Shown: positions 21,636 to 32,805 of the stretch, in pieces | Position numbering within the stretch: position 1 is the first letter of the stretch | How the letters are laid out: each line of letters opens with the position of its first letter | From: Candidatus Alloenteromonas pullicola | GTDB taxonomy: Bacteria > Bacillota_I > Bacilli_A > RFN20 > CAG-826 | Assembly (NCBI GenBank): GCA_018714785.1 | Contig: DVMV01000014.1 | Span: forward strand, 1-58,044 | Length of the DNA stretch: 58,044 bases | Direction: 5' to 3' | The notes under the pieces: generated by a model | The model's database searches: none | What the model saw: only the letters and a program-made list of their open reading frames with translations | What the model was told of the DNA's origin: nothing | Translations under genes and position numbers: made by a program

Positions 21636-21713
21636 TTGGCCGCCGATGCTAGAATAATCGCAACGAAATGGATTCTCCATTTCTATGTAGCATCGGGAAA
21701 GGACCATTTGCCT

Positions 21714-23528
21714 ATGCTGGTATTGGATTTGAATAAAAAGGAATTCGAGGGATTCGCCCTGTCGGATATCCATCTTTCTTTTCCGAATTCCGGGATGTTC
21801 GTTTTGAAGGGCCCCAACGGATGCGGGAAATCGACCTTGCTCAACATCCTCTCGGGGCGCGACAGCGACTTCGCCGGCTCGCTTGCCTATGATGGGAAGC
21901 CGGCCGACTGGAGGTTCAAGGAGAAATACGCCTGCCTCGTCCCCCAGACCCCGATCATCTTCAATGAGCTTTCGGTGATTGACAACGTCATGGCCCCGTA
22001 TCGGCATAAGGACAAGAAGAAAGCCCTCTCCGCCTTGGAGGCGGTGGGGCTGGTGAATGCGACGTCCACACCGGTTATGGCCCTCTCATCGGGCGAGAAG
22101 CTCCGCCTAGGGCTCGCCAGAGCCATATACGGGGATTTCCCGATTTACCTAGTCGACGAGATCGACGCGTTTTTGGACGAGGAGACCTCGGAGGAGATCT
22201 ACGCCATACTCAAGGATCTGTCGAAAACTCGCCTCGTTGTGGCAGCAAGCCACCGCGGCGTCAGCATCGATTCATCGCATGAGGTCCTCGTTGGATCCTG
22301 CCTCCGCTTTGTTGGTCCAGGCGAGGACAGTAAGGCAGATGAAAGTAAGCGCGATCAGGCGAAAGGCAAAAGCGTTCTGGACTGGCGGTTCGATTCCATC
22401 GCCGCGGTCTTCTGCCTCCTTTTTGGCTTCCTTGGCCTGTTTCTGGGCTCGTCTACGGGGCTGGTCGACTACGGATACCTTGATTTGTTCACTTCCTCGC
22501 AGCCGGGGATCTCCCTTTCGCAACAGAGGATGTTCGCCGAGTCGGAGGGCTTGCTCCTCGATCCGGAATCGCCTCGGTTCGAGCAGGGGTGCTCGGTGAT
22601 ATCCACCGAATTCGTCTTCGATGGGAACGCCACCGTCTCCTGGCTGTTTGCCTTGGATGGCGATTGCGATGACATCGATTCGCTTAAGGCGGAGAACCTC
22701 CTCGCCGGCGATTGGCCAAGCGATGGCTCAGAATGCCTGCTGCCATCGAATTACTTCGACTCGAAGGGATTGGCCTACTCCTCTTTTGCCGAAGCGAAAA
22801 TTGATTTCGATGGGAATTCGCTTTCCTGCTGCGGCGTCTACCAAAGCCGAAACGGGAGCTTCTACTCCGCCGCCTATGGCCGAATGCTCGACTCGCGTTC
22901 CTTCAATTGGAATTTCATCGCCGCCGAGATTGGGTTCCTGTCCAACTCGGCCTTCACCTTCAATGGGGATGATTTCCCATTCGACTATATCATGGCCATG
23001 GGCTGGCAAGGGCTCAACCTCTCCAAGGCCGACCTGAACGGCTCCGCTTTGTTTTCCGACGACCCGTGCATTCTGATGACGTCTTCGGGGTCGACCCCGC
23101 TAAGATGGATCGAATCCTACCCGGCATCGAATTCATGCTTCTCATTCGTCTTCGCCATAGGCTCCGGCGCCTTGATGTGCATTCTCTGCTTCGCCTATTA
23201 TCAGCGGAATAAGCGGCGGACGTTGCTGCTTCTGGCCTCTGGCAAAACCCGCAAAAGCCTGCTGAAGGAATCGTTTGCCGATATCCTGGGCTCGTCTTTG
23301 GCCGCATTGACTGGAAGCCTGGTCGTCTACTTGGCCGTTTGGCTGCCGTATTTGCTTTCCCTTAGCGCCTCCTTCCCCGGATTGCTCTTCTTCCGCTTCC
23401 CGCTTGAGGCGTTTATGGTCGAGCTTCTATCGATATTCATCGCCGATGCGGTGTTTGCCGTGCTCGCCTTCCGCCTTCTGGCCCCCAAGGACATCTCGGC
23501 CAAGCTAAACGATCTAAAGAGAGGCTAG
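21714..23528 (+). CDS. Fused ABC ATPase plus FtsX/MacB-type permease (paralog A, canonical NBD)
   Basis: 604 aa from the first in-frame ATG (the track start is a TTG at 21636, inside the terminator). Motifs: Walker A GPNGCGKST, Q-loop VPQTP, signature LSSGEKLR, Walker B IYLVDEID, H-loop SHR. These are followed by TM1, an extracytoplasmic domain of about 230 aa, and 3 more TMs. Confidence 0.85.
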   Translation: MLVLDLNKKEFEGFALSDIHLSFPNSGMFVLKGPNGCGKSTLLNILSGRDSDFAGSLAYDGKPADWRFKEKYACLVPQTPIIFNELSVIDNVMAPYRHKDKKKALSALEAVGLVNATSTPVMALSSGEKLRLGLARAIYGDFPIYLVDEIDAFLDEETSEEIYAILKDLSKTRLVVAASHRGVSIDSSHEVLVGSCLRFVGPGEDSKADESKRDQAKGKSVLDWRFDSIAAVFCLLFGFLGLFLGSSTGLVDYGYLDLFTSSQPGISLSQQRMFAESEGLLLDPESPRFEQGCSVISTEFVFDGNATVSWLFALDGDCDDIDSLKAENLLAGDWPSDGSECLLPSNYFDSKGLAYSSFAEAKIDFDGNSLSCCGVYQSRNGSFYSAAYGRMLDSRSFNWNFIAAEIGFLSNSAFTFNGDDFPFDYIMAMGWQGLNLSKADLNGSALFSDDPCILMTSSGSTPLRWIESYPASNSCFSFVFAIGSGALMCILCFAYYQRNKRRTLLLLASGKTRKSLLKESFADILGSSLAALTGSLVVYLAVWLPYLLSLSASFPGLLFFRFPLEAFMVELLSIFIADAVFAVLAFRLLAPKDISAKLNDLKRG

Positions 23529-23529
23529 G

Positions 23530-25509
23530 ATGAAGCTAGAAAACATAGGCAAAAGATTTCCTGGGCGCACCCTTTTCGAGGGGGTTTCCGTTGAGCTCGA
23601 CTCCGGGCTGCTGCTCATCGAGGGCAAATCGGGGTCGGGGAAGTCGACTTTGCTCGACATCATAGTCTCGAACTATCAGCAGTACGAAGGGACCGTCTCC
23701 TTCCCTAGGGATTGCTGCTATTGCGGCGTCAATGGCGGCTTGGTGCTGGATTGGTCGTTTGAGAAGAACCTCGACCGGCTTTTGGGCGCTAAGATCGATG
23801 AGGAAGCCGTTTCCTCTATGTTATGCAGGCTTGGCTTAGCCGGATTGGAGAAGAAGAAGCTCATCTGTCTCTCGATTGGGCAGCGGAGGAAGTTCCAGCT
23901 TGCCGCCTGCCTTCTTAAGAGGGCCCAGGCATATGTGATAGATGAGCCGTTCGCCTCGCTCGACGAGCCATCGAAAAAGCAGGTCGCCTCGATTCTCAAT
24001 TCCCTAAGGGCCGATCACCTCGTCGTGCTGGCCAACAACGATCCCGAGGGCACGGATCTGCTGGGTTATTCGGTTTTGCTTACCTTCGATGGCAAGGGCG
24101 GGCATCAGATTAGGCTTGGCGAAGGAAAAGATAGGCCCGCGACCGAAAGCGTCGAGCAACTGCCGAGTCGGAAGCCGCGGTTTTGGCTTGGCTGCCTGCT
24201 TTCCGCCTTCATAAGCCGCTTCAAGGGGCTGTCGGCTGCCGTGATCGCCCTTTCCTTCCTCGCTTCGAGCCTAATCATGCTCGGCCTAGCCTTCTCCGAG
24301 CTGAAAAACCCATATGTAGCCTCGGTTGAGGCAAGCCCTTTTTCCTACGTCAGCTTGCAGCCGAGCCTCCCTTTCTCCGAAAAGGGCGGTTTTGCGTTGT
24401 TTTCCAATCCGGACATAGTCTGCTTTGACTTGTCTTATATGCAGGATAGCGTCCAGAAGCCGGTGAAGGTGTTCGCGGTCGATGCGGACTTGCCATCTCC
24501 TGAGGTCTATCCCCATCAAGATGATTCACTTTTCGCACCATATCCCGAGATAGGCGACGGAACCCATGCCTACGACTACGCCATGAACTTCTATCCCTCG
24601 AGGGTTATTCTGGATGGGCACGACGATACCCAGATGATGTTCGTCTCCTTGGATTCGCTTCTCGAGGAGCTATCTAGCGGAGGTTTGCCGTTCTCGCTTC
24701 CTCTTCGGGGGTGGATGTTTCCTCGCTTTTCCTATGGCGAGCTTTCTTTGTCTTCTGACGACGATATATCGTTGTCGGGCGAATTTTCCGGCGTTTCCAT
24801 CTATGACAGCGAATCCTTTTCCTGCTCCTCGTTCCAGTCGGGCAGGCGTTTTCGCTTCTCGATCGGCGGAAGCGAACAATCCGTTGTCTGCCAGAAAGGC
24901 GAGCCCGGAGTATCGTCTTCGCTTTTCCTCGCCCTTTGCGCCTACAAGGGAATCACCGATGGCCCGGATTTCTGCAGGCTCGCCTACTCCAAGCAAGAGG
25001 CCGCCTCGATTCTTAGGATTGGCGCGGCCGAGTCAGCCGACGACGTCATCGTCTCCGAGCTCAGGGGCCAGTCCTCGATGGCGAGCGCCTTCTTCGGGCT
25101 GGGCGCCGTGGTATTCGTCGGCGATGCGCTTCTTGTCCTGCTAAACGGGAACGCCTTCTCCGCCTTCTCCTCCTCGATGGCCGGCGTGCTGGATTTTGCT
25201 GGGCTAAGGAAAAAGCGTTGGCCAATGCTCTTTCTGCTTGGGATGTCTCTCTGTTTCTTGCCTTCTGTGCTTTCGTTGGCCCTTTACGGACTGGGTTATC
25301 TTCCGATTGCCAACGATGTTGCCATCAATTCGGCATATGAGGGAATAAGCTCGGAATTTGGGGCCACTCCCGACTCGGTGTATTTCATGGGCCGCCGGCT
25401 GCCTGAGTTTGCCACGTTCTCGTGGTATTCGCTGCTGGCCGTGCTCGGGTTGGCGGCGCTTGGCTTGGTCGTCCTTCTGCTTTCCAGGAAAACCAAAGGA
25501 AATAAGTGA
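23530..25509 (+). CDS. Fused ABC ATPase plus FtsX/MacB-type permease (paralog B, degenerate NBD)
   Basis: 659 aa, starting 1 nt after the stop of paralog A. Motifs: Walker A GKSGSGKST, signature LSIGQRRK, Walker B AYVIDEP. It has no Q-loop Gln and no switch His (VLANNDPEG). Topology is the same: 1 TM, a big loop, then 3 TMs. Confidence 0.85.
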   Translation: MKLENIGKRFPGRTLFEGVSVELDSGLLLIEGKSGSGKSTLLDIIVSNYQQYEGTVSFPRDCCYCGVNGGLVLDWSFEKNLDRLLGAKIDEEAVSSMLCRLGLAGLEKKKLICLSIGQRRKFQLAACLLKRAQAYVIDEPFASLDEPSKKQVASILNSLRADHLVVLANNDPEGTDLLGYSVLLTFDGKGGHQIRLGEGKDRPATESVEQLPSRKPRFWLGCLLSAFISRFKGLSAAVIALSFLASSLIMLGLAFSELKNPYVASVEASPFSYVSLQPSLPFSEKGGFALFSNPDIVCFDLSYMQDSVQKPVKVFAVDADLPSPEVYPHQDDSLFAPYPEIGDGTHAYDYAMNFYPSRVILDGHDDTQMMFVSLDSLLEELSSGGLPFSLPLRGWMFPRFSYGELSLSSDDDISLSGEFSGVSIYDSESFSCSSFQSGRRFRFSIGGSEQSVVCQKGEPGVSSSLFLALCAYKGITDGPDFCRLAYSKQEAASILRIGAAESADDVIVSELRGQSSMASAFFGLGAVVFVGDALLVLLNGNAFSAFSSSMAGVLDFAGLRKKRWPMLFLLGMSLCFLPSVLSLALYGLGYLPIANDVAINSAYEGISSEFGATPDSVYFMGRRLPEFATFSWYSLLAVLGLAALGLVVLLLSRKTKGNK

Positions 25510-25540: not shown

Positions 25541-26686
25541 TCAATTCCCGACCATGCGCTCACTCTTGAAAGTGAGCGAGGTAAGCGCGGCGAAGACTCC
25601 GGCTAAGACCAAGTTGGACAATATGCTCATCCCGGAGTAGAGCAGGTCGTAGGAGCCGCTAGATATAAGCTTCAGGCACTGCACCGACCCCAGAAACGGA
25701 ACGAAGGCATACCCGAGGCCGCTGACGTCGGCGAAGCTCGGGATTATCGCCAGGACCATCATTACCGCGGTCAGCGGGCCCAAATACCCATTGGCTTCCT
25801 TGGTGGATTTCGATAATGCGGAAATTAGGGTCGCCATCGACACGAATAGCAGCAGCAACGAGAGTATGGCGAAGAAGAACAGGGCATAGCCGCCGCTGGA
25901 GATCCCCAATCCGGTGTCGCCGAATAGGTTCGGCGCGCTCGCCAAGGTGCAGGCCGCGTTCCATGACCCGGACAGCAGGGCGACCAGCGATAGGGCCAAT
26001 AGCTTACCGCAGGCTAGCTCCAAGGGCTTGATCGGCGTCGCCAATAGCGAGAGCAGCGTCCCCCTTTCCTTCTCCCCGGCGATCGATTCCGGGCAGATCG
26101 AGATTACCGAAGAATATAGCAGCGAGATTGTTATCATCGGGAGGATGAATCCCATTACCGATATGCGGGCGTAGCTCTTTTCGCCTAGGTTGGGGTTGAT
26201 GCCCTCGTTGAACGAATACGGCCTATAAGCTAGGTCGACGAGGGAGGGGATGACCGAATAGAGGGTCTCCGAGGCCTCGGATTCCCCGTTGTAATAAGCC
26301 TGTATCGAAGTTGGCGCCCCGTCTTCGTTAAAGGCGAAGAAGAGCAGGGAGTCTATCTTGTCCTCCCGCAGGCTTGTCTTCATTGAGGCGAGCTCGTCGT
26401 TGGGGTAATAGGTGATGGTCGGCTCTTCCTGGTTGACCGTCTCGAAGTAGGATAAGAGCACCGGAACGAACTTCCCACCTTCCTCCTCCTCGTTTATGGC
26501 GATGCGGTAGGAATAGTTTTTCTCAACGCCCGATCCGTCGATTAGGGAGGTCACCACCTTCCCCATGACCATGTATATCACGAAGATGAGGACGCCGGGC
26601 ATGAATAGGGCCGCCAGCATCCGCTTATCGGCGAAAAAACGCCGCATTTCCTTCTTGAAGACCGCAAAAACGCGCCCAAAATTCAT
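25541..26686 (-). CDS. ABC-2 family permease (NatB-like)
   Basis: 381 aa. One N-terminal TM, a large external loop, then 5 C-terminal TMs. 4-nt overlap with the upstream ATPase gene. Confidence 0.85.
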   Translation of the reverse strand: MNFGRVFAVFKKEMRRFFADKRMLAALFMPGVLIFVIYMVMGKVVTSLIDGSGVEKNYSYRIAINEEEEGGKFVPVLLSYFETVNQEEPTITYYPNDELASMKTSLREDKIDSLLFFAFNEDGAPTSIQAYYNGESEASETLYSVIPSLVDLAYRPYSFNEGINPNLGEKSYARISVMGFILPMITISLLYSSVISICPESIAGEKERGTLLSLLATPIKPLELACGKLLALSLVALLSGSWNAACTLASAPNLFGDTGLGISSGGYALFFFAILSLLLLFVSMATLISALSKSTKEANGYLGPLTAVMMVLAIIPSFADVSGLGYAFVPFLGSVQCLKLISSGSYDLLYSGMSILSNLVLAGVFAALTSLTFKSERMVGN

Positions 26687-27459
26687 ATTTCGTCCTCCTC
26701 GTAGCAGGAGAAGAAGACCTTTTCGATCCCGCCTTCCTGCTTAATGCTGGCCATATCCCCTTCATATGACTTCTTGCCTTTTAGGATTATGCACACCCGG
26801 TCGGCGAGCTTGTCGATCAACGAGAAGATGTGGGTCGAGATGATGACGGTCTTGCCAAGCTCCCTTAGATGCAGCAGGTAATCCTCGACCGCTTTGGCCG
26901 ACAATATGTCGAGACCGTTGGTGGGCTCGTCGAATATCACCAGGTCGGGGTCGTTGCATAGCGAGATGGCCAGCGACGCCTTCTGCTTCATGCCGGTCGA
27001 GAGGTCGGAAATCTTCACGAAGGCGAAGCTGTCTATCCCGAAATAGGAGAAGAGCCTTTGTTTTCTTTCTTTTATTTTCTCCTCGGATAGGCCGTACATC
27101 TTGGAATAGAACGAGAAGAGGTAATCGGGCGTGAAGAACGGGTCGAGCTTGAGGTCGGACGTCAGGAAGCCGATCCTCGCGCGGAGCTCGTTGTTGCCGC
27201 GGGTCAGGTTCTCCCCGAATAGCCTTATCTCCCCCGAGGTTGGGTTAAGCAAGCCCGCGAGCATCCTTAAGGTCGTGGTCTTGCCGGCCCCGTTTGGGCC
27301 GAGCAACGCGAATATCTCGCCGCGCCTCAAGCTGAAGGAAAGACCGTCGACCGCGGTCAAAGTGGGGGAGGTTGATCCCACTTCCTTGCGCTGCTTCCTA
27401 GACAAAGGGAAGCGCTTGGTAAGCCCAGAGGCTTCCAATACGATGCCGTTTTCGTCCAT
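26683..27459 (-). CDS. ABC transporter ATP-binding protein (NatA-like)
   Basis: 258 aa. Motifs: Walker A GPNGAGKTT, signature LSTGMKQK, Walker B LVIFDEPTNGLD. Confidence 0.92.
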   Translation of the reverse strand: MDENGIVLEASGLTKRFPLSRKQRKEVGSTSPTLTAVDGLSFSLRRGEIFALLGPNGAGKTTTLRMLAGLLNPTSGEIRLFGENLTRGNNELRARIGFLTSDLKLDPFFTPDYLFSFYSKMYGLSEEKIKERKQRLFSYFGIDSFAFVKISDLSTGMKQKASLAISLCNDPDLVIFDEPTNGLDILSAKAVEDYLLHLRELGKTVIISTHIFSLIDKLADRVCIILKGKKSYEGDMASIKQEGGIEKVFFSCYEEDEI

Positions 27460-27461
27460 GC

Positions 27462-28271
27462 TTATCTCCTGCCGTCTTCCTTCACCACGTCGTAGATCGA
27501 TATCACCCCGAGCATGGCCTCATCCTTTTCGCCGTGCTCGGTGACGATGATTAGGCCGAGCCTTTTTCCGTCCTCGATCTTCGAGAATTCGCTCTCCGCC
27601 CTAGCCATCGGCTCGCCTTTGCCGAGGAAGATGAACCGCTTGCTGTGCGAGGGGAAGGCGAAATACCGCTCGAAGTCCGATATCCTGACCTTCGATACGT
27701 CTCCTTGCAGCCTAGAGCCTACAAGCAGCAGCTTGTTCGCGGTTATCATCCCTTTTACCCGCTTTTTGGAATCTATCACCGGGGTGTAGGTGACCCCATG
27801 GGCGGCGAATGAGTTGTAGGCTTCGATCAATAGGTTGTCCATCGTGTAGGATTTGACGTCCTTGGTGCAGATGTCGAGGCACGTCTTGCCCATCTTGATG
27901 AGTATGGCCTGCAGATCCTCGTTGACCGCCGAGCTCACGGCCACAGGATACCCGCCGTCGTACTCCTCATGGGAAAGGTAGTTCCTTATCTGGCGGTACT
28001 CCTCGAACTTCTCGTAGTATTTCCGCTTGTAATAGGAGTAAAGGGACTGGTCGTTGTCCCGTATCGTCTCCAGCTGCCGGTAGAGATTGAGGAACCTATC
28101 GGTCGTCTGCTTGCTGTATTCGTGCTTTGCCATTTCCGACATTATATAGGGTTTTCCCTTTCTAGACAGCGACCCCAGGTTGCCTTTGACGAAAACCTCG
28201 ATCGGGGTTTGATAGAAAAAAGAGAACTTCATGGAGAAGTCAAAAACACCCAAGTTCAGGACTTTCAACAT
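27462..28271 (-). CDS. CBS-pair domain protein with an N-terminal helical domain carrying an Rx4H (HEPN-like) motif; start uncertain
   Basis: 269-aa ORF. The C-terminal half has two CBS repeats (...TYTPVIDSKKRVKGMITANKLL... and ...LGLIIVTEHGEKDEAMLGVISIYDVV...). The N-terminal part contains IRNYLSHEEY. Alternative starts are ATG 28142 and ATG 28133. First gene of a 3-gene operon with the ABC-2 exporter. Confidence 0.75.
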   Translation of the reverse strand: MLKVLNLGVFDFSMKFSFFYQTPIEVFVKGNLGSLSRKGKPYIMSEMAKHEYSKQTTDRFLNLYRQLETIRDNDQSLYSYYKRKYYEKFEEYRQIRNYLSHEEYDGGYPVAVSSAVNEDLQAILIKMGKTCLDICTKDVKSYTMDNLLIEAYNSFAAHGVTYTPVIDSKKRVKGMITANKLLLVGSRLQGDVSKVRISDFERYFAFPSHSKRFIFLGKGEPMARAESEFSKIEDGKRLGLIIVTEHGEKDEAMLGVISIYDVVKEDGRR

Positions 28272-28401
28272 GGTCCTTCAGTACAAGAAGGTGGGGAAGT
28301 GGAAGGACTACCTCTATGGCGAGCGGGCCTACATCATCCTGAGCCTGGTGGCCAAGACGCTATTGGCCTATCTGGTGTTCGCCGGCATCATGCAGCCTTG
28401 A
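28231..28401 (+). pseudogene. Heliorhodopsin 3' relic (last loop plus TM7 with the Schiff-base lysine)
   Basis: A 56-codon open frame below the track cutoff: MEKSKTPKFRTFNMVLQYKKVGKWKDYLYGERAYIILSLVAKTLLAYLVFAGIMQP*. From FNMV onward it closely parallels the C-terminus of heliorhodopsin 48C12 as I remember it (...LVQYLQYKGKGKWSNYLRGERAYIVLSLVAKSALAWQIFSGTLIPA). In-frame stops lie at 28210 and 28213, and the upstream space is occupied by an opposite-strand gene. Confidence 0.7.
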
Positions 28402-28439
28402 GGGCATCAGCATCCAACGGGGCCTGATGACCCCTTTTT
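28402..28439 (+). terminator. Rho-independent terminator of the former heliorhodopsin gene
   Basis: GGGCATCAG (28402-28410) pairs with CTGATG(A)CCC (28424-28433, one bulge), followed by TTTTT (28435-28439). Confidence 0.6.
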
Positions 28440-28557
28440 CGTGCCGAAAACCGGTAAAAAGATAAACCGATTTACCGATATGAACCATGAAAGAGGTTAC
28501 AAACCTGCCCGATTTGCGCAAAAAACGCGATATCGGTAATCGACCTCCCGAATTTCG

Positions 28558-28585
28558 TTGAAGACACCACCCCCCTCTTTATAAA
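28558..28585 (+). promoter_or_regulatory. Candidate promoter of the hydrogenase operon
   Basis: TTGAAG (28558-28563), a 16-nt spacer, then TATAAA (28580-28585), about 38 nt before the hydC ATG. Confidence 0.4.
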
Positions 28586-28623
28586 ATAAAGGGCGTTGCT
28601 TTCGGATTTTTGGAGGTAAGTAA

Positions 28624-29109
28624 ATGCCAATCCGCCATGAAGTGATAGAGGGAGTTGAGCAGATATGCAACTCCTACAAGGATGAGCCATCTCCTTTGAT
28701 GATGATCTTATCCGCCATCCAGAAGAAATACGGATACATCCCGCTGGAGGTCCAGGAGATCGTGAGCCGGAAGACCGGCATCCCGGTCGCCGAGATCTAC
28801 GGGGTCGTGACCTTCTATTCTTTCTTTTCCCTGAAGCCGAAGGGAAAATACGTCCTCGGCATCTGCCTTGGCACCGCCTGCTACGTCAAGAACTCCCAGG
28901 CCATCGTCGACAAATTCTCGGCCCTCTTGGGCATCGCCCCCGGCGAGACCACCGATGATGGGCTGTTCACCATCGAGGCCGTCCGCTGCATCGGCGCCTG
29001 CGCCTTGGCCCCGGCCATGACCATCAATGGCAAGGTCTATCCGAAGGTCACCCCGGATCAGGTCGGGATGATCATCGATGAGTATCGCAAGAAGGAGGAA
29101 GCCAACTAA
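28624..29109 (+). CDS. hydC: NuoE-like [2Fe-2S] subunit of an NAD(P)-linked [FeFe]-hydrogenase
   Basis: 161 aa; cysteines in CLGTAC and CIGAC; NuoE/HydC length. Confidence 0.88.
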   Translation: MPIRHEVIEGVEQICNSYKDEPSPLMMILSAIQKKYGYIPLEVQEIVSRKTGIPVAEIYGVVTFYSFFSLKPKGKYVLGICLGTACYVKNSQAIVDKFSALLGIAPGETTDDGLFTIEAVRCIGACALAPAMTINGKVYPKVTPDQVGMIIDEYRKKEEAN

Positions 29110-30983
29110 TGGATAGGATCACCTCACCGGAATCGCTTCAGAAGGAGATCGATTCCTGCACTAAGGCGTTCGACGCCAAGATCAAGGGGACCAACGGCAA
29201 GCGCGCCGTGGTCGTCTGCGGCGGGACCGGCTGCATCGCCAACGCCTCCGTCGACATCCAGAAGGCCCTCGAGGACGAGATCAAGGCCCATGGGATAGAG
29301 GACAGGGTGACCGTCAACCACGTCGGCTGCTTCGGCTTCTGCTCGCAGGGCCCCTTCGTCAAGATATTCCCCGAAGACACCCTTTACCACGCGGTCAAGC
29401 CATCCGACGTCAAGCAGATCGTCGAGGACGATTTGATCGGCGGCAAGGTTTGCGAGAACCTGCTTTACGTCGACCCCGTCACCTACGAGAAGGTCGTCAG
29501 GCAGGATGATATCAACTTCTATAAGAAGCAAGTCCGCGTAGCCCTGCACGGCTGCTCGCTGATCAACCCCGACCTGCTAGAGGAATCGCTGGGCTACGAT
29601 GGCTTCAAGGCATTGAAGAAGGTCTTGACCACCATGACCCCGCAGCAGGTCATCGACGAGGTCCTCGCCTCTGGCCTCCGCGGCCGCGGCGGGGCTGGCT
29701 TCCCCACTGGCAGGAAGTGGCAATTCGCCGCCAACGTGCAGGCCGACCAGAAGTACATCGTCTGCAACGGCGACGAGGGCGACCCGGGCGCTTTCATGGA
29801 CCGCTCGATACTCGAGGGCAACCCCTTCGAGGTCATCGAGGGCATGATGATCGCCGGCTACGCCTTCGGGGCCAGCAAAGGATATTTCTACGTCCGCGCC
29901 GAATACCCGGTCGCGGTCGAGCGCCTTGAGCGCGCCATCAAGGACATGGAGGAAGTGGGGCTGCTCGGGGACAACATCCTCGGCACCGGCTTCAGCTTCC
30001 GCGCCTACCTCCGCCTTGGCGCCGGGGCCTTCGTCTGCGGCGAGGAGACCGCGTTGCTCAACTCCATCGAGGGCAAGCGCGGCATGCCTCGCCCCCGCCC
30101 GCCGTTCCCGGCCATCAAGGGCCTATGGGGCAAGCCGACCTGCGTCAACAACGTCGAGACCTTGGCCACCGTCCCCTACATCATCCGCGTCGGGGCGAGC
30201 GAATTCGCCAAGGTGGGCACCGAGAAGAGCAAAGGCACCAAGGTCTTCGCCCTCGGAGGCAAGATAAACAACGTCGGGTTGGTCGAGGTGCCGATGGGCA
30301 CCACCCTCCGGACGCTTATATTCGACATCGGCGGCGGCATCCCCAACGGGAAGAAGTTCAAGGCCATCCAGACCGGAGGACCCTCGGGCGGCTGCTTAAC
30401 CGAGAAGGACCTCGACACCCCGATCGACTACGATTCGCTCGTCGCCAAAGGCTCGATGATGGGCTCCGGCGGAGCCATCGTCATGGACGAGGACAACTGC
30501 ATGGTCGACGTCGCCCACTTCTACATGGACTTCATCTGCAACGAGTCCTGCGGGAAGTGCAGCCACTGCCGCATCGGCACCAAGCGCCTGTTCGAGATGC
30601 TCACCCGGGTCACCAACGGCACCGCGACCGAGAAGACCCTCGACGACATGAAATACCTGGCCACCGTCATCAAGAACGGCGCCCTGTGCGCCCTTGGGCA
30701 GACCGCGGCCAACCCGATCCTCTCGACCATGGTCAACTTCCCCGAGGAATACCGTGCCCACGTCGTCGACAAGAAGTGCCCGGCCCACGTCTGCAAGAAG
30801 CTGATGCGCTACGTCATCGACCCGAATCTATGCAAGAAGTGCTCGCTTTGCGCCAGAAACTGCCCCGTCAGCTGCATCCACGGCGTCCCGGGGAAGGAGC
30901 CATACGTCATCGACCAGAGCAAGTGCATCAAGTGCGGCTCATGCATGTCGGGCTGCCGCTTCCACGCCATAATCAAGGAATAA
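29109..30983 (+). CDS. hydB: NuoF-like flavoprotein subunit (FMN/NADH site; N-terminal thioredoxin-like 2Fe-2S; C-terminal 2x[4Fe-4S])
   Basis: 624 aa; CGGTGC...CFGFC, GLRGRGGAGFPTG, ESCGKCSHCR, and C-terminal CxxCxxCxxxCP repeats. Confidence 0.9.
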   Translation: MDRITSPESLQKEIDSCTKAFDAKIKGTNGKRAVVVCGGTGCIANASVDIQKALEDEIKAHGIEDRVTVNHVGCFGFCSQGPFVKIFPEDTLYHAVKPSDVKQIVEDDLIGGKVCENLLYVDPVTYEKVVRQDDINFYKKQVRVALHGCSLINPDLLEESLGYDGFKALKKVLTTMTPQQVIDEVLASGLRGRGGAGFPTGRKWQFAANVQADQKYIVCNGDEGDPGAFMDRSILEGNPFEVIEGMMIAGYAFGASKGYFYVRAEYPVAVERLERAIKDMEEVGLLGDNILGTGFSFRAYLRLGAGAFVCGEETALLNSIEGKRGMPRPRPPFPAIKGLWGKPTCVNNVETLATVPYIIRVGASEFAKVGTEKSKGTKVFALGGKINNVGLVEVPMGTTLRTLIFDIGGGIPNGKKFKAIQTGGPSGGCLTEKDLDTPIDYDSLVAKGSMMGSGGAIVMDEDNCMVDVAHFYMDFICNESCGKCSHCRIGTKRLFEMLTRVTNGTATEKTLDDMKYLATVIKNGALCALGQTAANPILSTMVNFPEEYRAHVVDKKCPAHVCKKLMRYVIDPNLCKKCSLCARNCPVSCIHGVPGKEPYVIDQSKCIKCGSCMSGCRFHAIIKE

Positions 30984-30996
30984 GGGGAGGAGAACA

Positions 30997-32805
30997 ATGG
31001 ACAACATCAAGATAAACATCGAAGGCCATCTCTACGAGGTGCCTTCCGACCTCACCATCCTTGAGGCGGCGAGGAAAGTCGGATACAACATCCCCTCGCT
31101 ATGCTACTGGAACAAAGGCCACAACTCGCTGGCCTCCTGCCGCGTCTGCTTGGTCGAGCTCGCCTCCAGCCGCGGGTCGCGCCTAGTCGCGAGCTGCGTC
31201 TACCCGGTATCGGAATGTGCCGCCGACAAGGGGTTCGTGATCAAGATCAGCTCCCCGATGGCCATCGATGCCCGCCGCACCTCGGTCGAGCTATTGCTAT
31301 CCAACCACTCCAAGGATTGCCAGACCTGCGTCAAGAACGGGCAGTGCGAACTGCTCCACGTCGCCTCGCTCACCGGGGCCAGGAGCGGCCAGTTCCTAGG
31401 TGAGGTCACCCCCTCTACCTACGACGACGTCGCCCCCGGCTTGGTCAGGAACACCAGCAAGTGCATCCTCTGCGGCCGCTGCATCGAAAGGTGCAAGGAG
31501 GCCCAGGGCATCGGCATCCTCGGGTTCGAGAAGCGCGGGTTCAACACGATAGTGGGGCCGGCCGAGAATCGGTCGTTCGCCTCCGTCCCCTGCATCCAGT
31601 GCGGCCAGTGCATCGAGGTCTGCCCGACCGGGGCTTTGTCCGAGAAGCGCGAGATCGACAAGGTCGACCAGGCCATGCACCAGGGCAAGTACGTCATCGT
31701 GCAGACCGCCCCGGCCATCCGGGCCGCCATCGCCGAGGAATTCGGCCACAAGATCGGCGAGCAGAACGGGACCGGCAAGATGGTCGCCGCCCTCCACCGC
31801 CTTGGCTTCTACCGCGTGTTCGACACCAACTTCGGGGCTGATCTGACCATCATGGAGGAAGCCCAGGAGCTCCTCAACCGCATCAAGACCGGCGGCACCC
31901 TCCCTCAGATAACCTCCTGCTCGCCCGGCTGGATCAACTACATGGAGTACTTCTACTCCGACCTCATCCCCAACGTCAGCACCTGCAAGTCGCCCCATGA
32001 GATGGAAGGGGCCATCATAAAGAGCTACTTCGCCAGCAAGCACGGCCTCAAGCCGGAGGACATATTCGTCGTCTCCATCATGCCCTGCACCGCGAAGAAG
32101 TACGAGGCCAAGCGGCCGCAGAACGCCGCGGTCAACGGGCTTCCTGACGTCGACGCCGTGCTCACCACCCGCGAGCTCGCGGTCATGATCAAGCGCGCCG
32201 GATTGCTCTGGGATGAGCTGCCCGAGGAGGAGTTCGACGACGACCTGATCGGCGAGTACACCGGGGCTGGCGCCATCTTCGGCGTCACCGGCGGGGTCAT
32301 GGAGGCCGCGCTGCGCACCGCCTACCACACGCTGACCGGCAAGGAGTACGACAAGATCGAATTCCTCGAGGTCCGCGGGCAGAAGTCGCTTAAGGAAGCC
32401 GAGATCGACATCGCCGGCACCAAGCTCAAGGTCGCAATCGCCAGCGGCATGAAGGCCGCCAAGCCGCTGCTTGACGAGGTGAGGGAGGGCAAGTCGCCTT
32501 ACGCCTTCATCGAGATCATGGGCTGCCCCGGCGGATGCATCAACGGCGGCGGGCAGCCGTTCGTCAAGCCGAACCTAATCCCCAACCAGGGGGCCGACAT
32601 CCTCGACCGCTACCGGCAGCTGCGGGCCAACGTCCTCTACTCCATCGACGAGAAGAAGACCATCCGCCAGTCGCACAACAACCCCGACATCATAAGGCTG
32701 TACAAGGATTACCTTGGCTCGCCTTGCGGCGGGGTCGCCGAGGAACTGCTCCACACCAGCTACAACGCTTCGCGCGAGGCATTCCCTTCCGTCAAAGCCA
32801 AGTAG
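30997..32805 (+). CDS. hydA: [FeFe]-hydrogenase catalytic subunit (M3-type architecture) with a variant L1 motif TSCSPGW
   Basis: 602 aa. An N-terminal 2Fe-2S ferredoxin-like domain, HxxxCxxC...C, and two 4Fe-4S motifs. H-cluster motifs are TSCSPGW (L1 variant), MPCTAKKYEA (L2) and EIMGCPGGCINGGGQP (L3). Confidence 0.92.
   Translation: MDNIKINIEGHLYEVPSDLTILEAARKVGYNIPSLCYWNKGHNSLASCRVCLVELASSRGSRLVASCVYPVSECAADKGFVIKISSPMAIDARRTSVELLLSNHSKDCQTCVKNGQCELLHVASLTGARSGQFLGEVTPSTYDDVAPGLVRNTSKCILCGRCIERCKEAQGIGILGFEKRGFNTIVGPAENRSFASVPCIQCGQCIEVCPTGALSEKREIDKVDQAMHQGKYVIVQTAPAIRAAIAEEFGHKIGEQNGTGKMVAALHRLGFYRVFDTNFGADLTIMEEAQELLNRIKTGGTLPQITSCSPGWINYMEYFYSDLIPNVSTCKSPHEMEGAIIKSYFASKHGLKPEDIFVVSIMPCTAKKYEAKRPQNAAVNGLPDVDAVLTTRELAVMIKRAGLLWDELPEEEFDDDLIGEYTGAGAIFGVTGGVMEAALRTAYHTLTGKEYDKIEFLEVRGQKSLKEAEIDIAGTKLKVAIASGMKAAKPLLDEVREGKSPYAFIEIMGCPGGCINGGGQPFVKPNLIPNQGADILDRYRQLRANVLYSIDEKKTIRQSHNNPDIIRLYKDYLGSPCGGVAEELLHTSYNASREAFPSVKAK

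Follow-up and report, generated by a model that had tools for sequence, protein, structure and literature searches.

A probable heliorhodopsin pseudogene with an internal in-frame deletion, upstream of a hydrogenase operon

The window analysed here is a 58,044-nucleotide (nt) stretch of a contig from Candidatus Alloenteromonas pullicola, and the element in question is a short open reading frame (ORF) that appears to be the relic of a heliorhodopsin gene. The ORF, 56 codons and a stop, lies on the forward strand at 28231-28401. On its upstream side, on the reverse strand, is an operon for a CBS-domain protein, an ABC ATPase and an ABC-2 permease (25541-28142; Pfam CBS, ABC_tran and ABC2_membrane), the first gene of which encodes the 226-residue CBS protein (27462-28142). 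Downstream, on the forward strand, is the hydCBA operon for an [FeFe]-hydrogenase (28624-32805). The CBS gene and the relic do not overlap but are separated by 88 nt. An earlier note on this DNA had let the operon begin in the place of the first six of the seven transmembrane helices (TM1-6) of heliorhodopsin; the gene starts at 28142 and not at 28271, and the 226-residue gene call is common to three related metagenomic assemblies (L001-L003).

The relic and its intact parent allele

The relic peptide, MEKSKTPKFRTFNMVLQYKKVGKWKDYLYGERAYIILSLVAKTLLAYLVFAGIMQP (56 residues), matches the Pfam Heliorhodopsin family PF18761 with E=5e-21 and 75.6 bits (cutoff 26.7). The match runs from relic residues 11-54 and is limited to profile positions 199-242 of 242. 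Heliorhodopsins with solved structures are also matched by phmmer, namely TaHeR (7clj/6is6, E~1e-15) and 48C12 (6su3, E=3e-12), the latter with residues 14-56 of the query aligned to chain positions 213-255. The resemblance to the C-terminal end of 48C12 that the earlier note had pointed out is thus significant when searched for. Its second claim, that the Schiff-base lysine survives, also stands: the codon AAG at 28354-28356 encodes Lys42, the counterpart in the alignment of residue 241 of 48C12, which is the retinal-binding lysine in the literature.

Two segments make up the ORF. The first (28231-28269) encodes a native N-terminal stub, MEKSKTPKFRTFN, with the conserved heliorhodopsin motif L/F-R-x-F-N. 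With a position-specific matrix derived from the N-termini of 15 full-length heliorhodopsins, this stub falls among the top 0.25% of 6,765 ORF N-termini, and its allele in L001 among the top 0.04%. The second segment (28270-28398, 43 codons) corresponds to the end of the TM6-7 loop followed by TM7, as judged by Pfam, phmmer and the comparison with an intact allele described below. According to the earlier note, nothing but the last loop, TM7 with its lysine and the terminator had survived; these are present, and the native start codon and the first 13 codons have been kept as well. The frame is closed just upstream by in-frame stops (TGA TAG, 28210-28215), as had been noted. Searches of the 58-kb window by tblastn and by a six-frame heliorhodopsin profile search recovered no other heliorhodopsin sequence (TM1-6).

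Judged against what a functional heliorhodopsin requires, the relic has the family profile match and the TM7 Schiff-base lysine, but not the seven-helix domain, nor the TM3 counter-ion glutamate and retinal pocket residues, which are heliorhodopsin features known from published structures. It also lacks a near-invariant tryptophan. Five residues past the Schiff-base lysine, 98% of 217 family members have Trp; the relic has Tyr47 (TAT, 28369-28371; TGG in the intact allele). The relic is a heliorhodopsin by descent, yet one that falls short of the structural requirements that define the family. A lone TM7, without retinal pocket or TM3 counter-ion, could not be a photoreceptor, which argues that the remnant is a pseudogene.

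The full-length gene that the earlier note had proposed to look for upstream of hydCBA in relatives does exist. A full-length probe search retrieved P0246, an intact heliorhodopsin of 260 residues on contig L103, which aligns end to end with TaHeR (E=1e-60) and is in other words a standard full-length member of the family. L103 reads, in order, 12 nt from the start of the CBS gene, a 91-nt spacer, the heliorhodopsin gene, a 221-nt spacer, hydC and hydB. The N-terminus of P0246, MEKSKTSKLRTFN-IVMGSL..., is identical to the L001 stub at 13/13 positions, and its last 43 residues are identical to the C-terminal segment of the relic in the window at 42/43. GC content at third codon positions is host-like in both the L103 gene (0.854) and the relic (0.825).

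Comparison of L103 with the window by blastn places both ends of the missing segment inside the heliorhodopsin gene. Positions 1-148 of L103 correspond to 28131-28275 and positions 750-2262 to 28265-29778, with flank identities of 85.8% and 96.7%. The overlap of the two blocks in the window, 28265-28275, is the deletion junction and the lone remaining copy of an 11-nt quasi-repeat, TCAACAT(A/G)GTC. This sequence occurs twice in L103, as TTCAACATAGTC at codons 12-15 (T-F-N-I-V) and as GTCAACATGGTC at codons 216-219 (V-N-M-V). Of the intact gene the relic preserves codons 1-13 and codons 218-260; 612 nt, or 204 codons, are missing and the frame is kept. The parent has both repeat copies, the flanks are collinear and a single copy marks the junction, as expected of an allele formed by deletion between short direct repeats.

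The region behind the gene is also alike in the two alleles, with 221 nt between stop codon and hydC in L103 and 222 nt in the window, and the hairpin retained. This hairpin (28402-28439, forward strand) has a bulged 9-bp stem, a 13-nt loop and a run of five T residues, and is likely the original heliorhodopsin terminator. The call is a weak one. The earlier note had rated it a good intrinsic terminator, and the hairpin and T-run are indeed there, but the folding energy of -13.7 kcal/mol is not distinctive (z=-0.2 against shuffles) and a terminator consensus scan does not call the site.

The arrangement of CBS gene (reverse strand), relic and hydC (forward strand) recurs in L001, L002 and L003, three Logan assemblies made from further samples. 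The relic peptide is P0001 in L001 and L002 (93% identical) and P0043 in L003. Contig L102, from a JGI co-assembly, matches positions 26589-28435 of the window at 100% identity and was the sole contig recovered by a metagenome scan with the CBS protein. The junction is therefore present in five assemblies including the window, and L001, L002, L003 and L102 each come from a different sample.

On the strength of homology, parent allele, endpoints, repeat and synteny, and of the substitution pattern given below, we consider it probable, at about 0.88, that the relic arose by a 612-nt in-frame deletion between the quasi-repeats and is now a decaying pseudogene, a case of ordinary gene loss. The ancestor would have had an intact 260-residue heliorhodopsin gene, with the divergent CBS/ABC-2 operon on one side and hydCBA, transcribed in its own direction, on the other. 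Within that gene, the two quasi-repeat copies, 612 nt apart, would have encoded the motifs at the start of TM1 (T-F-N-I-V) and just before TM7 (V-N-M-V). A single deletion between the copies, by replication slippage or mediated by microhomology, would then have removed residues 14-217 (TM1-TM6) and left one copy of the repeat; we infer this mechanism from the anatomy of the locus. Because F-N-I-V and V-N-M-V are written in similar codons, such a deletion is automatically in frame. The outcome would be the ORF of 56 codons, which keeps the promoter region of the gene, its start codon, the 13 N-terminal residues, TM7 with its lysine, the stop codon and the hairpin. The remnant would since have drifted as a pseudogene, with mutations accumulating in its ribosome-binding site and -10 box and at conserved residues.

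Decay of the remnant and alternative explanations

Changes to the expression signals were followed by aligning the window, L001 and L003 with L103 as the outgroup. The putative heliorhodopsin promoter remnant (28186-28213, forward strand) consists of a -35 box TTGACG (28186-28191), a 16-nt spacer and a -10 box TTTGAT (28208-28213); a promoter scan called no site at 28186-28213. The -10 box is TTTAAT in L103 and has been altered in a different way in each relic allele, by A>G in the window, by a 1-nt deletion in L001 and by T>G in L003. The Shine-Dalgarno sequence (28219-28224) reads AAAGAG where the intact allele has AAGGAG, and this change (A for G at 28221) is common to the window, L001 and L003.

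The coding sequence shows the same tendency. The substitution of Trp47 by Tyr (W47Y) took two base changes, TGG>TAT, in the window and L001, and the codon has been deleted in L003. Other changes that follow the deletion are S7P and L9F in the window, M54T in L001, W24R and S38R in L003, and a change in the junction codon (ATA/ATG). All 5-6 post-deletion changes are nonsynonymous and 0 are synonymous, and some fall at residues that are 98-100% conserved. By the Nei-Gojobori method, nonsynonymous divergence (pN) is 0.031 in the relic compared to 0.006 in the pooled flanking genes, for which the ratio of nonsynonymous to synonymous divergence (pN/pS) is 0.12-0.13. Under flank-level constraint, a hand calculation gives P ~0.003-0.0008 for 5-6 nonsynonymous changes out of 5-6, and constraint of that degree is rejected (P ~0.001-0.003). 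L003 has suffered a further 79-nt deletion between TGGCC repeats at ~1236-1245 (...CTGG/TGGCC... and ...CTGA/TGGCC...), which has done away with the codon for the lysine, the stop codon and one half of the hairpin and has fused the ORF to the T-run region of the terminator.

Taken together, the Shine-Dalgarno and -10 changes, W47Y, the nonsynonymous-only divergence and the L003 deletion indicate a drifting pseudogene. Constraint is relaxed relative to the neighbouring genes, as judged from small numbers of changes, and degraded expression signals are found alongside a disrupted allele. Purifying selection across strains, as expected of a conserved small protein, is not what the truncated L003 allele and the pattern of divergence display. 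The timescale can be bracketed from synonymous divergence in the flanks. The deletion postdates the separation from the L103 lineage (flank pS 0.09-0.17) and predates the divergence of the relic-bearing strains (flank pS ~0.04-0.05). This places it within the species group, in keeping with the earlier suggestion that the event may be recent.

Reading frames of the same architecture occur elsewhere. An exhaustive HMMER search with genomic context look-ups identified two further mini-ORFs composed of an N-terminal stub and TM7. One is P0098 (MMDEKLKKLRKLN joined to MILQYKK...) at 328-540 of L090; the other is P0102 (MSENDESKFQGLRKF joined to IFAINMILQYKQ...) at 2621-2815 of L091 and also in L092-L094, in four samples overall. 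GC contents are 35% for L090 and 42% for L091, the gene neighbourhoods are unrelated, and no TM1-6 sequence was found near either mini-ORF, with only ~165 nt lying upstream. The L090 junction, AAC/ATG, is as in the window. P0098 and P0102 are each nearer to a different full-length heliorhodopsin (39/43 and 35/43) than to other relics (31-34/43), and their origins thus look independent. Two closely related full-length genes, those of L004 and L008, have TTAATAT at both motifs, an exact 7-nt repeat with its copies 610-614 nt apart in assemblies that bear frameshifts. We interpret this to suggest that the conserved motifs may build an in-frame deletion hotspot into heliorhodopsin genes. A protein or Pfam search shows in-frame products only, and the survey is to be read with that ascertainment in mind.

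Several observations weigh against gene loss followed by drift. The counts are small, at 5-6 events, and neutrality is not rejected (P ~0.2, by hand calculation). The ORF in the window strain has no stop or frameshift, as the earlier note had remarked, and keeps nearly all family-conserved TM7 residues, so that recent loss and weak selection are inseparable on sequence integrity alone. The -35 box and partial -10 and Shine-Dalgarno sequences are left, and some transcription or translation is possible. The stub-plus-TM7 architecture in two unrelated genomes could hint at selection and not at a hotspot alone. Lastly, L103 includes just 12 nt of the CBS gene, and a full cassette upstream of the intact allele is likely but lies beyond that contig.

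The alternative that best survives is that the relic encodes a single-pass membrane micro-protein of 56 residues, expressed and under selection, which might bind a former heliorhodopsin partner such as the adjacent ABC transporter. Arguing for this case, the window, L001 and L002 all have an undamaged ORF, and the architecture arose independently in two further genomes, with P0102 seen in four samples. Removal of an even number of helices would, from the published heliorhodopsin topology, keep TM7 in its N-in/C-out orientation. Heliorhodopsins have moreover been reported to bind the transmembrane domains of ABC transporters (PMC11109279). Counter to this, the Shine-Dalgarno core is mutated in every allele, the -10 lesion differs from allele to allele, and the coding changes are all nonsynonymous, including those at the most conserved residues. 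L003 is without the C-terminal half of the ORF, the sister species L010 has the ABC cassette and no heliorhodopsin, and only in-frame deletions leave an ORF that Pfam can see. We consider a selected micro-protein unlikely, and the earlier suggestion that such a product may still be made is disfavoured by the same changes.

A more general form of this idea is that a codon-level repeat (F-N-I at TM1, I/V-N-M before TM7) recurrently generates an expressed and functional peptide of 55-64 residues from stub and TM7. Frames of this kind are seen independently in at least three unrelated genomes. If the idea held, the peptide might dock onto the former heliorhodopsin partner (the neighbouring ABC transporter) or act on heliorhodopsin oligomers. 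We regard it as slightly less probable still than a selected micro-protein at this one locus.

Insertion of the cassette, the account favoured in the earlier note, is far less credible than either. Here, a 2.7-kb CBS/ABC-2 insertion or rearrangement would have cut off the 5' part (TM1-6) of the heliorhodopsin gene, and the CBS operon does occupy the opposite-strand DNA just upstream of the relic. Synteny does not bear this out. HydC was used to scan one genome per species, and the window proteins were then mapped onto the loci by tblastn. In the closest species, L010 (HydC 92% identical), the order is rpoA, rplQ, the reverse-strand genes for ABC-2 permease, ABC ATPase and CBS protein, a spacer of ~210 bp, and hydCBA, with no heliorhodopsin. 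The L010 cassette proteins are 55-67% identical in amino acid sequence to those of the window, so the cassette has diverged along with the genome. In L011 and L015 the CBS gene lies directly upstream of hydC. Heliorhodopsin was found within 10 kb of 0/80 HydC-scan loci. Because L010, L011 and L015 have the cassette or the CBS gene beside hydC without a heliorhodopsin, the CBS/ABC-2 cassette is the ancestral resident and the ~300-bp relic segment the extra element of the window's lineage. Further against an insertion, the relic retains its own start codon and first 13 codons (in L001 identical to the intact allele), the CBS gene starts 91 nt upstream of the intact gene in L103, and both deletion endpoints are internal to the heliorhodopsin gene. 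The truncation by a 2.7-kb cassette is contradicted by the L010 synteny, the intact L103 allele and the internal 612-nt deletion alike.

An assembly artefact, in which an assembler collapsed two 11-nt repeats, has a negligible chance of being correct even though the deletion endpoints are repeats, given that an 11-nt repeat with one mismatch is far below assembler k-mer length, that the five assemblies sharing the junction come from different samples and pipelines with allele-specific single-nucleotide differences, and that the derived Shine-Dalgarno and W47Y changes are absent from the intact allele; the mis-assembly at about 28.2 kb about which the earlier note had cautioned is excluded.

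Neighbouring features and other heliorhodopsin genes

The hydrogenase operon comprises hydC (28624-29109), which has a Pfam 2Fe-2S_thioredx match, and hydB (29109-30983) and hydA (30997-32805), whose names come from ORF translation and tblastn synteny only. All are on the forward strand, and the synteny of the operon extends over L001, L003, L010-L031 and L103. A promoter scan calls a promoter-like site for hydCBA at 28558-28587 (TTGAAG, 18 nt, TAAAAT; forward strand), which is independent of the relic, the region being conserved with the heliorhodopsin-less L010. Just upstream of this site is a perfect 10-nt inverted repeat, TTACCGATAT / ATATCGGTAA (28472-28481 and 28530-28539), with arms 48 nt apart that are both recognisable in L010; it may be a candidate operator for the hydrogenase operon.

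The relic and hairpin are flanked by an 11-nt direct repeat, TGACGAAAACC / TGCCGAAAACC, at 28187-28197 and 28442-28452, 255 nt apart. We set it aside as probably due to chance, because L010 has no copy and L103 accounts for the locus without it. Over 27900-28800, Rfam gave sub-threshold chance matches only, to models of eukaryotic small nuclear and small nucleolar RNAs.

Farther upstream, at 21636-25509, rplQ and the ABC-2 permease gene are separated by two large ORFs of 630 and 659 residues. Both have an ABC_tran ATPase domain at the N-terminus, and the long C-terminal remainder of each is without a Pfam match. The pair is missing at the corresponding position in L001 and L002, which are of the same species, and in L010; it is thus a 3.9-kb strain-level indel.

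Decay may also affect other heliorhodopsin genes. The closest full-length genes, on Bacilli-type metagenomic contigs (L095/L096, L098, L008 and L009), have frameshifts that recur reproducibly in numerous independent assemblies. On L097, unrelated sequence stands in place of the 5' half of the gene, and L099-L101 look the same as L097 from their gene calls. This suggests either widespread heliorhodopsin decay in Bacilli-type lineages or a systematic sequencing problem. In L004 (~828-830), an in-frame TGA stands at the conserved Trp position five past the Schiff-base lysine (…TLLA(stop)LVF…), where the related intact protein P0244 has Trp; either a nonsense mutation or the decoding of TGA as Trp in that AT-rich organism could account for it. 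Recoding of TGA as Trp was rejected as a general explanation of split heliorhodopsin genes, since translation with table 4 shows true frameshifts in L095, L098 and L008.

Many short proteins labelled heliorhodopsin in databases are fragments of frameshifted genes. A word-indexed search with the 56-residue peptide returned short proteins only, mostly pieces of full-length genes that were frameshifted or at contig edges, in other contexts, and was uninformative about this locus. In metagenomic sets, short ORFs with strong Pfam Heliorhodopsin matches are common, and caution is needed as they are mostly fragments or relics and not mini-rhodopsins. A second caution is that conserved motifs can make in-frame deletion hotspots, which produce look-alike relics in independent lineages.

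The closest genomes in the HydC scan are uncultured Bacilli/Erysipelotrichaceae/Mollicutes-type metagenome-assembled genomes from gut and rumen, in agreement with the monoderm host that had been proposed. Such a Bacilli-type host fits the reported restriction of heliorhodopsins to monoderms, and loss of a light sensor would fit the dark gut and rumen habitat.

Comparison with known systems

Compared to the heliorhodopsin family, as represented by 48C12 (6su3) and TaHeR (6is6/7clj), the 43 C-terminal residues of the relic form a typical TM7 segment and the 13 N-terminal residues share the family motif at that end. The difference lies in between. The relic keeps ~56 of 260 residues, and TM1-6 have been deleted.

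A parallel for the gene neighbourhood is OcHeR, which is reported to regulate the adjacent ABC transporter OmrDE, a heterodimeric multidrug resistance exporter; ABC transporters are among the frequent classes of heliorhodopsin neighbours (PMC11109279). Likewise, an ABC transporter operon lies divergently beside the heliorhodopsin gene here, which is intact in L103 and a relic in the window; this operon differs from OmrDE in being made up of a CBS protein, an ABC ATPase and an ABC-2 permease. By analogy, the CBS/ABC-2 operon might be a former partner of the heliorhodopsin. L010 keeps this operon without a heliorhodopsin, and therefore lends no support to a link between the two.

We found no description of internal-deletion relics of heliorhodopsin in the literature, in a search that was not exhaustive. 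The value of the locus is that it offers a clean and fully reconstructed death of a photoreceptor gene in a gut- or rumen-type bacterium, one where parent allele, exact endpoints, 11-nt repeat and later decay can each be seen. It also corrects a plausible but wrong account, that of truncation by an inserted cassette. The process itself, deletion between short repeats and then pseudogene decay, is known and ordinary, and the locus does not reveal a novel type of system. Deletions between short direct repeats are classically known from Escherichia coli lacI. There, as at the relic in the window, two copies are found in the parent and one at the junction, with collinear flanks on either side. The L003 deletion between TGGCC repeats is a second event of this type. 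The heliorhodopsin case differs in that the repeats come from two conserved protein motifs.

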